Source of the DNA: Escherichia phage AV117
Length of the DNA stretch: 64,000 bases
Sequence record: OR352947.1
Reading direction: 5' to 3' (one strand)
Shown: positions 57,560 to 61,621 of the stretch, piece by piece
How the letters are laid out: each line of letters starts with the position of its first letter
Numbering within the stretch: position 1 is the stretch's first letter
Notes under the pieces: model-generated
The model's database searches: none
Seen by the model: the letters and a program-made list of their open reading frames with translations, nothing else
What the model was told of the DNA's origin: nothing
Translations under genes and position numbers: made by a program

Positions 57560-60500
57560 ATGGCTACATTAAAACAGATACAATTTAAAAGAAGCAAAGT
57601 GGCAGGAGTTAATCCTACTGCAGCACAATTAGCCGAAGGCGAATTAGCGATAAACTTAAAAGATCGAACTCTTTTTACTAAAGATGACCTCGGTAATATT
57701 ATTAGCCTAGGCTTTGCTAAGGGCGGGGATATTAACGGTAATGTAACTCAAAATGGAGATTATTTACAGAACGGTGCATATAATCTCAATGGAAACCAGT
57801 TTGTTTATGCAGGAAAGTATATTGAATTCTTGCCAAAAACTGCTGGAAATGGCGCTTGGGCTAACCAACACACAAATAAAGCCCCTATCTTTACAGATTT
57901 GAGTTCAACTACTTCAACTTCTGAATACCACCCTTTGATTAAGCAACGTTATAAAGACGGTACTTTTTCAGTAGGTACATTAGTAAGCGAAGGCTCATTT
58001 AGAGTTCATTATATTGATTCTACAGCTCCAGACAATTCTAAACACTGGGCCTTTAACCGTAATGGTAATTTTATTGTAGATTCTGGTAGTATTGAGGTCC
58101 GCGCAGGTAATATTTCTGCGTCAGGCAATATTAACTCCGCTAATGGTATAGTTTCTGCTCCACAAGTTAATACGAAAACCATTGTTTTAGACACAAAAGC
58201 ATTCGGACAATATGATTCACAATCATTAGTTCAATATGTTTATCCTGGAACAGGTGAAGAAAATGGTATAAACTATCTTCGTAAAGTTCGAGCTAAATCA
58301 GGCGGAACTATTTACCATGAAATCGCTTCAGCTCAAACTGGTAAGAATGATGAAATTTCTTGGTGGACCGGAAACTCACTTACCACTAAATTAATGGGTC
58401 TTCGTAATGATGGCGCAATGGTATTACGTCGTTCACTTGCTATTGGCACAATTACCACTGACGAAAATACTAACAACTACGGTTCTCCTACTCCAATGGG
58501 AGAAAGATATATTGCTTTGGGCGATGCTGCAACCGGTTTAAAATATATTAAGCAAGGTGTTTATGATTTAGTAGGTAATTGGAATTCTGTTGCTTCTATT
58601 ACTCCTGATAGTTTCCGTAGTACTCGTAAAGCATTATTTGGACGTTCAGAAGACCAAGGCGGAACCTGGACAATGCCTGGCACTAATGCCGCTTTCTTGT
58701 CTGTTCAAACACAAGCTGATAATAACAATGCTGGAGACGGCCGGACACATATTGGTTATAACTCCGGTGGAAAAATGTCGCACTATTTCCGTGGTACAGG
58801 TCAGATGAATATCAATACCCAACAAGGTATGGAAATTAACCCGGGTATTTTGAAATTGGTAACCGGTGCAAATAATGTGATGTTTTATGCTGATGGCGGT
58901 ATTACATCCACTAAGCAGCTTTCAATATATAATGGTGTATATTTAGCAGCTAATAATTCTACTGCTGGGCTAACATTCGCTCCAACTACTACAATTGATG
59001 GCACTAAGCAAATTTTGTGGGAAGGTGGTAAGCGCGCTGGACAGAATAAAAGCTATGTAACTGTTAAAGCGTGGGGTAATTCATTTAACGCATCTGGCGA
59101 TCGTAATCGCGAAACAGTTTTTGAAGTAGCTGACGGACAAGGTTATTATTTTTATTCCCAACGCGTAGCCCCAAGCGGCTCCGAAACTACTGGTCCTGTT
59201 GTAACCCAGTTTGCTGGAGCTGTTAATGCTAGAGGAAGTATTATTACTGACGGAAGTTTTAAAGTTAATGGATTAAGCACTTTAGTCGGTAATGTTACAA
59301 TGAGCAATGGTCTTAATTTAACTGGGGGTTCTTCTATTACAGGCCAAGTAAAAATTGGTGGAACTGCCGATGCATTAAGAATTTGGAATGCTGAATATGG
59401 TGCAATTTTCCGTCGTTCTGAAGATAAGCTTTATATTATTCCAACTCCGCAGAATGCTGGTGAAACAGGCGGTATTTCTAATTTACGTCCATTCTATATT
59501 GCATTAAGTAATGGTAAAGTCAGCATGGATCATGATGTTGATATCGGTGGTGGAAGATTTAAAGTAGAAACTAGTGGAACAACATCGGGGCAACGTATTA
59601 CAGTTAATACTGCCTCCGATGCTATTAGAATAAATGCTCCAACACAAGAGTCTTCTAACTTCATCCAAGGACGTAAAGCAGATGTCACAAAATGGTATTT
59701 GGGTATTGGCGATGGCGGCAACATCGTTCGTATGCACAGTTACACCTATTCCCATGGTATTGCATTAAACTCTGATACGGTTGATATAGCTAAACCTCTT
59801 AGAATAGGTTCAACCCAGATTGGAACCGATGGTAACATCACAGGTGGTTCTAGTAATTTTGCTAACCTGAACACAACTTTAGAACGTAGAGTTAAGGTCG
59901 GAACTTGGTCCGGTAGTTCAACTGCAGGATGGTATAAATTTGCTACTGTAACTATGCCACAATCAGTTTCTACCGTCCAATTTAAGATTATAGGTGGTAA
60001 TGGATATAATGCCAATTCACCAGAACAGGCTACAATTACTGAAGTAGTTCTTCGTACCAGTAATAACAATCCTAAAGGTATTAACGCCACTTTATGGGGG
60101 CGCACGGGTAATGGATTTACTAATATAGCAACAATTAATACCTCCGGTGATGATTATGACGTTTATCTGTATGCTGGGACTTATGCAGACAAACTTATAG
60201 TTGAATATGACGCCACAGAAAATACACGTTATATTTCGGTAATTGGTCTTAATGGTGGATATCAAACACCAGTAACAGAATTACCCGCTGGTCATCTCGT
60301 TGGTCAAGTGTATATGATGTATTCTGATGCTCAAATACCTTATCCGGTCGGTGCTCCGATTCCATGGCCAAGTGATTCAGTTCCTGACGGGTTTGCTTTA
60401 ATGGAAGGTCAGACTTTTGATAAGTCTGCATATCCTAAGCTCGCTATCGCATATCCTACAGGTACTATTCCTGATATGCGTGGACAAACTATCAAGGGTA

Positions 60501-61042
60501 AACCAAGTGGTCGTGCTGTTTTGAGCGCTGAGGCAGATGGTGTTAAGGCTCATAGTCATAGTGCAAGTGCATCAAGCACAGATTTAGGTACTAAAACCAC
60601 ATCAAGCTTTGACTATGGTACTAAGACGACAAGTAGTTTCGACTATGGTACTAAGACCAGTAATAATACTGGTGCTCATACGCATAGTTTGAGCGGTTCC
60701 ACAAACACCGCCGGTGCGCACAGCCACACAAGCGCTCTTTATGCGGGCGATAGAAACTCTCCTGGTGGTAGTTCTGCAAGAGGATCCGCCGGTGGTGGTA
60801 ATACGCTTGGAACTTCTTCTTCTGGGGCACATTCGCACTCTATATCTGGTACTGCTGCAAGCGCAGGCGCTCACGCACATACTGTTGGTATTGGTGCTCA
60901 TACCCATACAGTTGGTATTGGTGCTCACACCCATTCAGTAGCAATTGGTTCACATGGGCATACAATAACTGTAAATAGTACAGGTAATACAGAAAACACG
61001 GTTAAAAACATTGCTTTTAACTATATCGTTCGTTTAGCATAA
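57560..61042 (+). CDS. 37: long tail fibre distal subunit gp37 (receptor-binding tip with His-x-His repeats)
   Basis: 1160 aa; C-terminus ...[17 protein letters not shown] as T4 gp37; HxH-rich needle region. Confidence 0.95.
60586..60660 (+). repeat. in-frame tandem 30-bp repeats in gene 37 ([10 protein letters not shown] x2.5)
   Basis: copies at 60586, 60616 and partial at 60646; identical peptide, about 8 synonymous differences including a TCA to AGT serine codon switch. Confidence 0.8.
60881..60934 (+). repeat. in-frame tandem 27-bp repeats in gene 37 His-x-His region (TVGIGAHTH x2)
   Basis: two adjacent 27-nt units differing at 2 positions. Confidence 0.8.
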
Positions 61043-61072
61043 GGAGAGGGGCTTCGGCCCCTTCTAAATATG
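61041..61072 (+). promoter_or_regulatory. structured translation initiation region of gene 38 (split RBS)
   Basis: AAGGAG, then hairpin GGGGC-UUCG-GCCCC (61048..61061), then ATG at 61070; the hairpin would bring SD and AUG together. Confidence 0.55.
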
Positions 61073-61621
61073 AAAATATATCATTATTATTTTGACACTA
61101 AAGAATTTTACAAAGAAGAAAATTACAAACTGGTTAAAGGTCTTGGTCTTCCCGCTCATTCAACAATTAAAAAACCTTTAGACCCTAAAGAAGGCTATGC
61201 TGTTGTATTTGATGAACGCGAACAAGAATGGGTATATGTTGAAGACCATCGTGGAAAAACAGTATGGACATATGATAAGCAAAAAATTGTTATTGACACT
61301 CCAGGTGCTCTTCAAAATGTTACTACAGAAGAACCTGGTGAATTTGACATTTGGACTGGCGACGGGTGGAAGGAAGATGAAGCATATAAACGCGTAGTTC
61401 AACGTGATAAGAAAATTCATGAACTCTATAAATTATTCAGTGTTTTAAGTTCTCTTATTGACGCAGAGGTTGCTAATAGAGAAGAAAAACGAAAATTTAA
61501 AGAGCTCAAAAAATTCTTTGCCCTTTTAGAAAAACATGAACATCTTGGCGGTGAATTCCCTAAATTCCCTGACCTTGAAAACAAATCTATTATCAAAGCG
61601 ATTATAAATATCTTTAAGTAA
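61070..61621 (+). CDS. 38: tail fibre assembly chaperone gp38 (T4-type, not T2-type adhesin)
   Basis: 183 aa, exactly T4 gp38 length; no Gly-rich adhesin motifs. Confidence 0.85.
   Translation: MKIYHYYFDTKEFYKEENYKLVKGLGLPAHSTIKKPLDPKEGYAVVFDEREQEWVYVEDHRGKTVWTYDKQKIVIDTPGALQNVTTEEPGEFDIWTGDGWKEDEAYKRVVQRDKKIHELYKLFSVLSSLIDAEVANREEKRKFKELKKFFALLEKHEHLGGEFPKFPDLENKSIIKAIINIFK
61603..61610 (+). promoter_or_regulatory. late promoter motif upstream of holin t
   Basis: exact TATAAATA within the 3' end of gene 38, about 20 nt before the t ATG. Confidence 0.6.

Follow-up and report, generated by a model that had tools for sequence, protein, structure and literature searches.

The two tandem repeats near the C-terminus of gp37 in Escherichia phage AV117 are best explained together. 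The second FDY decapeptide and the second TVGIGAHTH unit would be the two halves of a fourth rung in an inherited needle stem of four rungs, and we put the probability of this explanation as a whole at roughly 0.8. The repeats belong to a long form of a known structure, one that is ordinary and inherited, and the window (the whole stretch of 64,000 nt that was analysed) is itself of small import, as its exact needle sequence is already present in public phage genomes. The result has a corrective value: T4, the standard reference, is the short variant. The sole point worth following up is a pairing rule for the whole family, according to which the numbers of units on the two strands of the needle stem would change only together.

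Position of the repeats in the gp37 needle

Gene 37 (57560–61042, plus strand) encodes the distal subunit of the long tail fibre of a T-even phage. Its open reading frame comprises 1160 aa, compared with 1026 aa for gp37 of T4. Pfam matches were found to Collar (PF07484), gp37_trimer (PF20744), Gp34_trimer (PF21446) and Phage_fiber (PF03335, a repeat family; 22.5 bits at a cut-off of 20). [quoted passage not shown] A phmmer comparison with the T4 tip 2xgf_A gave E = 2.9e-89, with query residues 90–333 placed on chain residues 18–242, so that collar, stem, tip and C-terminus were all covered. Over the last 241 aa, the identity to T4 was 69%. By every sequence criterion tested, the protein falls into the T4 gp37/lambda Stf needle family. 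That the gene is of the T4 type and longer than its T4 counterpart, as the preliminary description had it, was thus borne out by the lengths and by the similarity to the T4 tip.

The repeat region lies within the last 160 codons of the open reading frame. Tandem Repeats Finder reported two arrays there: 60587–60659 (period 30, 2.4 copies, 81% matches) and 60869–60949 (period 27, 3.0 copies, 83%). In the first, the FDY decapeptide occurs at 60587–60616 (aa 1010–1019) and again at 60617–60646 (aa 1020–1029), both on the plus strand. Copy 1 is identical to the single copy of T4 at 30 of 30 nt; copy 2 has no equivalent in T4 and shares 28 of 30 nt with copy 2 of a viral contig (L012). A degenerate third decapeptide follows at 60647–60676 (plus strand) and runs into the second HxH motif. 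The peptides of the two FDY copies are identical, and their DNA agrees at 23 of 30 nt, with the serines written TCA AGC in one copy and AGT AGT in the other. The second array is part of a run of four 9-residue HxH units of the form AHxHxVxIG (36 residues; 60869–60976, plus strand), where T4 has three. TVGIGAHTH is exactly duplicated within it, at 60881–60907 and 60908–60934, and the DNA of these two copies is identical at 25 of 27 nt. Both in-frame repeats are therefore real, each with an exactly duplicated peptide. The preliminary description had placed them correctly overall, with the start off by one base.

Both repeats lie in the needle stem. In T4, the stem consists of residues 882–931 and 960–1009 and the tip of residues 932–959 (PMC6957217). 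With these limits and the 2xgf alignment, the outward strand of the stem, carrying HxH 1–3, corresponds to 60548–60727 (plus strand; aa 997–1056, equal to T4 882–931 plus 10 aa). The tip or head subdomain follows at 60728–60811 (plus strand; aa 1057–1084), with the same length as T4 932–959 and a different sequence. The return strand, carrying HxH 4–8, corresponds to 60812–60988 (plus strand; aa 1085–1143, equal to T4 960–1009 plus 9 aa). The first repeat is on the outward strand, and the second is on the return strand. The additional 10 and 9 aa were the only clean insertions relative to the T4 tip outside the variable tip subdomain, and phmmer and MAFFT agreed on this.

The eight HxH motifs of the window start at aa 998, 1040, 1054, 1091, 1105, 1114, 1123 and 1132, and the seven of T4 at 883, 915, 929, 966, 980, 989 and 998. 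The resulting spacings were 42, 14, 37, 14, 9, 9 and 9 in the window and 32, 14, 37, 14, 9 and 9 in T4. The distance of 37 between the third and the fourth motif in both proteins means equal tip length. An alignment with T4 had been proposed as a check of the repeat number, and T4 turned out to have fewer copies: one decapeptide and one HxH unit less, both in the metal-binding stem.

Otherwise, the likeness to the T4 gp37 tip (PDB 2XGF; Bartual et al. 2010, via PMC6957217 and PMC9603124) is close. It extends to the collar, the outward and return strands of the stem, the small tip, a 15-residue C-terminal segment, the order and spacing pattern of the HxH motifs and a gp38 chaperone gene downstream. 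The differences are the additional unit on each strand (a decapeptide outward, an HxH nonapeptide on the way back), the tip sequence and a shaft segment of 144 aa before the collar. The tip sequence is unlike that of T4; the closest is that of ECO07P2 (96–100% nucleotide identity), and those of F2, GiZh and JQD51 are near. The tip subdomain is likely the part in contact with the receptor. Among the residues tested in T4, those critical for function sit in the tip subdomain and not in the stem (PMC6957217). If host recognition differs from that of T4, the tip is a likelier cause than the extra rung.

An AlphaFold2 monomer prediction of aa 920–1160 from an alignment of 25 sequences left the needle almost without secondary structure (mean pLDDT 48.4, pTM 0.22), a monomer being unable to represent an intertwined trimer stapled by metal ions.

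Coupling of the two repeat counts

The extra units are extra solely in comparison with T4. The long form (spacings 42 then 14 on the outward side, and 14 then 9, 9, 9 on the return side) was found in 13 of 15 other T-even phages: F2, GiZh, ECO07P2, JQD51, vB_EQ1, moha, AV116, PNJ-6, AV122, slur03, JS09, Aplg8 and vB_Eco_F31. Only T4 and GRNsp7 had the short form. The long form thus prevails in this sample of T-even phages.

The two repeat counts were compared across the family with measures that do not depend on a unit motif. The outward strand was measured by the distance between the first and the second HxH (H1–H2), and the return strand by counting the HxH motifs of the terminal run with a spacing of 9. 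A regular expression for the FDY unit had been tried as a counter and was given up for the H1–H2 spacing, as it undercounted diverged units (0 or 1). The sample comprised 174 distinct tips, drawn from 95 loci and 270 proteins. Part of it came from an exhaustive search of 1.8 billion representative sequences, in which about 1800 homologues were found and 150 of them were taken. A word-indexed protein search returned almost only near-identical fibres of E. coli prophages; the diversity came from the exhaustive search.

The H1–H2 spacing followed 10n+2, where n counts the HxH motifs of the return run and ranges from 2 to 7. A spacing of 22 went with a run of 2 in two tips, 32 with a run of 3 in 88 tips, and 41 or 42 with a run of 4 in 74 tips. 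The longer stems were rarer: 52 with a run of 5 (six tips), 62 with a run of 6 (one tip) and 73 with a run of 7 (one tip). In total, 173 of the 174 tips agreed, a figure that overstates the number of independent events, since the sequences are related and mostly come from E. coli prophage fibres. Two of the agreeing proteins needed a closer reading: P0232 is without the second HxH and agrees by unit count (one FDY unit, a run of 3), and in P0209 an outward unit contains an additional HxH, the real spacing being 52 with a run of 5. Four apparent exceptions (P0215, P0236, P0250 and P0252) were frameshifted or truncated.

The only true mismatch was an intact-looking gene in a metagenomic viral contig (L038; IMGVR_UViG_3300030021_000020, locus 1501–2226), which combines two FDY units with a return run of three HxH. 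The return unit of this gene shares 26 of 27 nt with that of T4. The gene probably arose as a hybrid by one crossover, or else a repeat was collapsed in the metagenome assembly.

The 174 tips fell into 75 clusters of tip sequences. Four clusters contained more than one stem length, and the two strands were matched every time; one type of tip was combined with stem lengths of n = 3, 4 and 6. Moreover, the distal HxH units of 14 residues were matched across the strands as well: (0,0) in 73, (1,1) in 99 and (2,2) in one. The preliminary description had taken the two repeats as separate events. With counts that co-vary almost perfectly over the 174 tips, this view gave way, and the two repeats appear to form one structural module.

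The same kind of needle is found outside the T-even phages. Lambda-type Stf proteins of E. coli prophages, which come with a Tfa chaperone, are homologous over their last ~230 aa (about 60–70% identity). They share the collar, the FDY units, the HxH pattern and the C-terminus, and they too occur with n = 3 or n = 4 as alternatives. They differ in the N-terminal shaft, in the siphovirus side-fibre context (PF08400/PF03406 regions) and in the tip sequences.

Two further observations were made in this sample. In AV122 (OR352952, locus about 700–1100), adjacent HxH nonapeptide units are identical at 27 of 27 nt and the two FDY units at 26 of 30, which points to a matched duplication of recent date, or to conversion, in both strands of this T4-like needle. 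A representative protein of 938 aa (P0121) has two needle-like regions, with HxH spacings of 32, 14, 324, 32, 14, 51, 14, 9 and 9; it may be a fusion or a read-through of two fibre genes.

A proposed fourth rung and the alternatives to it

The proposed arrangement starts from the T4 trimer, an intertwined beta needle of six strands with metal ions in octahedral coordination. There, each chain runs from the collar to the tip and then folds back, and the HxH motifs of the three chains coordinate an axial line of irons (PMC6957217, PMC9603124). The trimer has seven irons, and inter-strand contacts are given between G921 and F970 and between G964 and H929 (PMC6957217). These contacts set a hairpin register of i+j about 1892. 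Extrapolated by about 25 residues, this register would bring the decapeptide at T4 895–904 level with 988–997 (AHTHTVAIG). T4 905–914 would then lie level with the preceding HxH unit, and 886–894 (SASASSTDL, a degenerate unit) level with the last one.

The proximal stem would thus be a ladder of n rungs. Each rung would consist of one outward unit of ~10 residues (GTKxxSxFDY or degenerate) beside one return unit of 9 residues (AHxHxVxIG), presumably with one metal site. T4 would have n = 3, with three units facing three, and the phage of the window n = 4, with four facing four. The fourth rung would make the stem one rung longer and raise the predicted number of metal sites to eight, as against the seven irons of T4. 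The physical pairing of the units is inferred from the sequences together with the two published contacts, and occupancy of the eighth site by a metal is assumed from the conservation of HxH. Mismatched stems are rare although recombination is frequent in this region, which we read as selection against the mismatch. The ladder leaves the difference between 10 and 9 residues per rung on the two strands without an explanation, and the mismatched metagenomic gene, which indicates that an assembly can at least contain such a gene, counts against it.

A wider claim would be that in all tips of the T4/lambda type the proximal stem is a modular ladder. Its length would be altered only by matched gain or loss of units on both antiparallel strands (10 residues of the GTKxxSxFDY type and 9 residues of AHxHxVxIG), with one putative metal ion per rung and 2 to 7 rungs, and the distal module of 14 residues would behave likewise. 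We hold this generalisation only tentatively and would put it at slightly below even odds. HxH motifs, iron ions and mosaic exchange are already established for these tips. No statement of a matched-rung rule was found in the literature searched, a search that left the primary paper on the T4 tip structure outside. If real and undescribed, the rule would make it simple to design longer or shorter tips, and it would show cleanly how duplications in a fibrous protein can come in pairs that compensate for each other. It would also fix the number of metal ions per fibre. As a change on one strand only is predicted to misfold the needle, the pairing rule could guide the engineering of tail-fibre tips for host range.

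Common descent together with linkage might account for the matching counts by itself. Long and short needles would then be ancient lineages, each passed on as a block, and the structure would not require the counts to match. Only about 250 nt separate the two sites, most sequences have n = 3 or n = 4, and many proteins in the sample come from E. coli prophages and are closely related, all of which would suit this explanation. However, six different values of n occurred, all of them matched, and related tips sat on stems of different n. The region is mosaic, with breakpoints inside it (in JQD51 even within the FDY units), and yet it yielded a single mismatched gene, seemingly a hybrid of one crossover. 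Moreover, AV122 has young duplications at both sites, and the hairpin geometry of T4 sets the two units at one level. Taken together, we consider descent and linkage alone an unlikely explanation and prefer the matched fourth rung.

Fainter still are the chances of two separate events, the reading of the preliminary description. In the form weighed here, it holds that the FDY pair is the older one and was recoded in a way that kept the peptide and cut the DNA identity, which would avoid recombinational loss, and that the TVGIGAHTH pair arose by recent slippage, adding a metal layer and shifting receptor specificity. The FDY peptides, identical at only 23 of 30 nt and with the switch between TCA and AGT serine codons, are what had pointed this way, and a perfect tandem duplicate of the HxH unit is known from AV122. 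The codons were compared with an expectation of independent synonymous encodings, for which codon usage was taken from the window's four tail-fibre genes. The FDY pair shared 5 of 10 codons, where 4.30 were expected (P of 5 or fewer = 0.80). Codon sharing was thus at the level of chance. In relatives, it was above chance: 21 distinct DNA pairs had 107 identical codons at 184 positions with the same residue, compared with 79.9 expected (ratio 1.34). Family-wide, the FDY copies are more alike than chance, which is the opposite of avoidance.

Among lineages, the codon of the switching serine varies between TCN and AGY, and the position can also hold Thr, Gly or Asn. As these residues are tolerated there, the switch between serine codon families needs no special selection. 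Copy 1 is that of T4 and copy 2 is close to copy 2 of a distant contig, whose tip protein is only about 70% identical; hence, the codon difference was inherited. Selection for the peptide at lowered DNA identity was accordingly abandoned as an explanation, and codon differences between repeats of ten codons are no evidence of recoding.

The TVGIGAHTH pair shared 7 of 9 codons, where 3.79 were expected (P = 0.03, in a register picked post hoc). This is weak evidence that the pair is younger or that adjacent units underwent conversion. Through both repeats, the needle DNA is 100% identical to that of F2 and ECO07P2, and it is mostly identical to that of JQD51. With the same needle DNA in F2 and ECO07P2, nothing about it is recent or private to the phage of the window. 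The run of four HxH units was present in 74 distinct homologues. Recent slippage in this phage does not agree with these findings, and neither do separate origins agree with two repeat counts that co-vary family-wide. The reading as separate events with recoding is largely refuted. What stands of the preliminary description is the T4-type gp37, its greater length and the extra stem units; the recoding, the recent slippage, the separate events and the source of the extra length do not.

An artefact of assembly or sequencing in a low-complexity region can be practically dismissed: short tandem repeats are prone to mis-assembly, and the mismatched metagenomic gene might be a collapsed repeat, but the same sequence was found base for base in the independently sequenced F2 and ECO07P2, and the reading frame of gp37 is intact through the conserved C-terminus (a motif of 11 residues).

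Duplication of a small C-terminal segment of gp37 as a source of variation is not new. Laboratory host-range mutants of T4 reportedly carry duplications in the gp37 adhesin (Tetart et al. 1996, J Mol Biol 258:726); the duplications are said to have been selected for new hosts and to lie in the specificity region bounded by His motifs. The tandem duplication is what these mutants have in common with the window. The extra units of the window differ from them: they belong to the proximal part of the stem, occur in matching numbers on the two strands and were inherited.

Mosaic make-up of gene 37 and its neighbour, gene 38

The extra length of gp37 had been tied to the needle repeats. This did not hold: the needle accounts for only 19 of the 134 extra residues, and needle expansion was dropped as the source in favour of, mostly, a segment of the shaft. 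In a BLASTP comparison with T4 gp37, aa 1–775 of the window aligned with T4 1–803 and aa 920–1160 with T4 805–1026, and nothing aligned in between. The segment without a T4 counterpart lies before the collar at 59885–60316 on the plus strand (aa 776–919, 144 aa) and is the bulk of the extra length. It matches the tail-fibre PHROGs 21552, 3299 and 6722.

A similar shaft segment (GW.K.ATVTMPQ...) is part of the consensus for side tail fibres from E. coli prophages. A secondary BLASTP match was seen between aa 93–204 of the window protein and aa 682–808 of T4 gp37 (34% identity, E = 1.7e-13), which suggests that a shaft module was reused at different positions.

In its backbone, the window shares ~96% identity with Mosigvirus-like phages, for example WFbE185 and JN02. 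The best full-length DNA matches of gene 37 were vB_EQ1 and moha (88–89% identity over 89–94% of the gene), and no phage record matched the whole gene above about 89%. The block-wise identity was far higher. The segment before the collar (the last ~65 aa) was 95–100% identical to moha, a Mosigvirus, and the DNA of collar and needle was 100% identical to F2 and ECO07P2, both of Tequatrovirus. Gene 37 is therefore an inter-genus mosaic and, as a combination, a new mosaic allele. ECO07P2 (OP172785) has the same HxH spacings as the window, and the identity to it collapses upstream of the collar. F2 (NC_054913) shares the needle DNA and has a tip of 83–87% nucleotide identity. It differs in the spacings (42, 14, 38, 14, 9, 9, 9, owing to one extra Ser in its tip) and in the shaft, and the full-length proteins are 63.5% identical.

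Downstream, on the plus strand, lies gene 38 (61070–61621), which encodes a T4-type tail fibre assembly chaperone (gp38/Tfa) of 183 aa, with matches to Pfam Caudo_TAP (PF02413) and to phrog_105, tail fiber assembly (E = 5e-50). This chaperone is the partner expected for a T4-type tip. The order 37–38 is likewise annotated in T4, F2, GiZh and ECO07P2, and a holin gene comes next after gene 38. In the T2/T6 type, gp37 is without a needle of its own and is capped by a separate gp38 adhesin of ~260 aa with glycine-rich motifs (PMC3157838). This system was ruled out for the window, where the downstream protein is a Tfa-type chaperone of 183 aa and gp37 has a complete T4-type needle.

A scan of the junction between genes 37 and 38 for terminators and promoters gave nothing above background. 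A hairpin (GGGGC-UUCG-GCCCC) lies at 61045–61064, between the stop of gene 37 and the start of gene 38, with a folding energy of -15.6 kcal/mol (z = -2.8). As it is without a T-run, it is no classical terminator. The hairpin is kept in T4, F2 and moha, with a difference of one base in T4.
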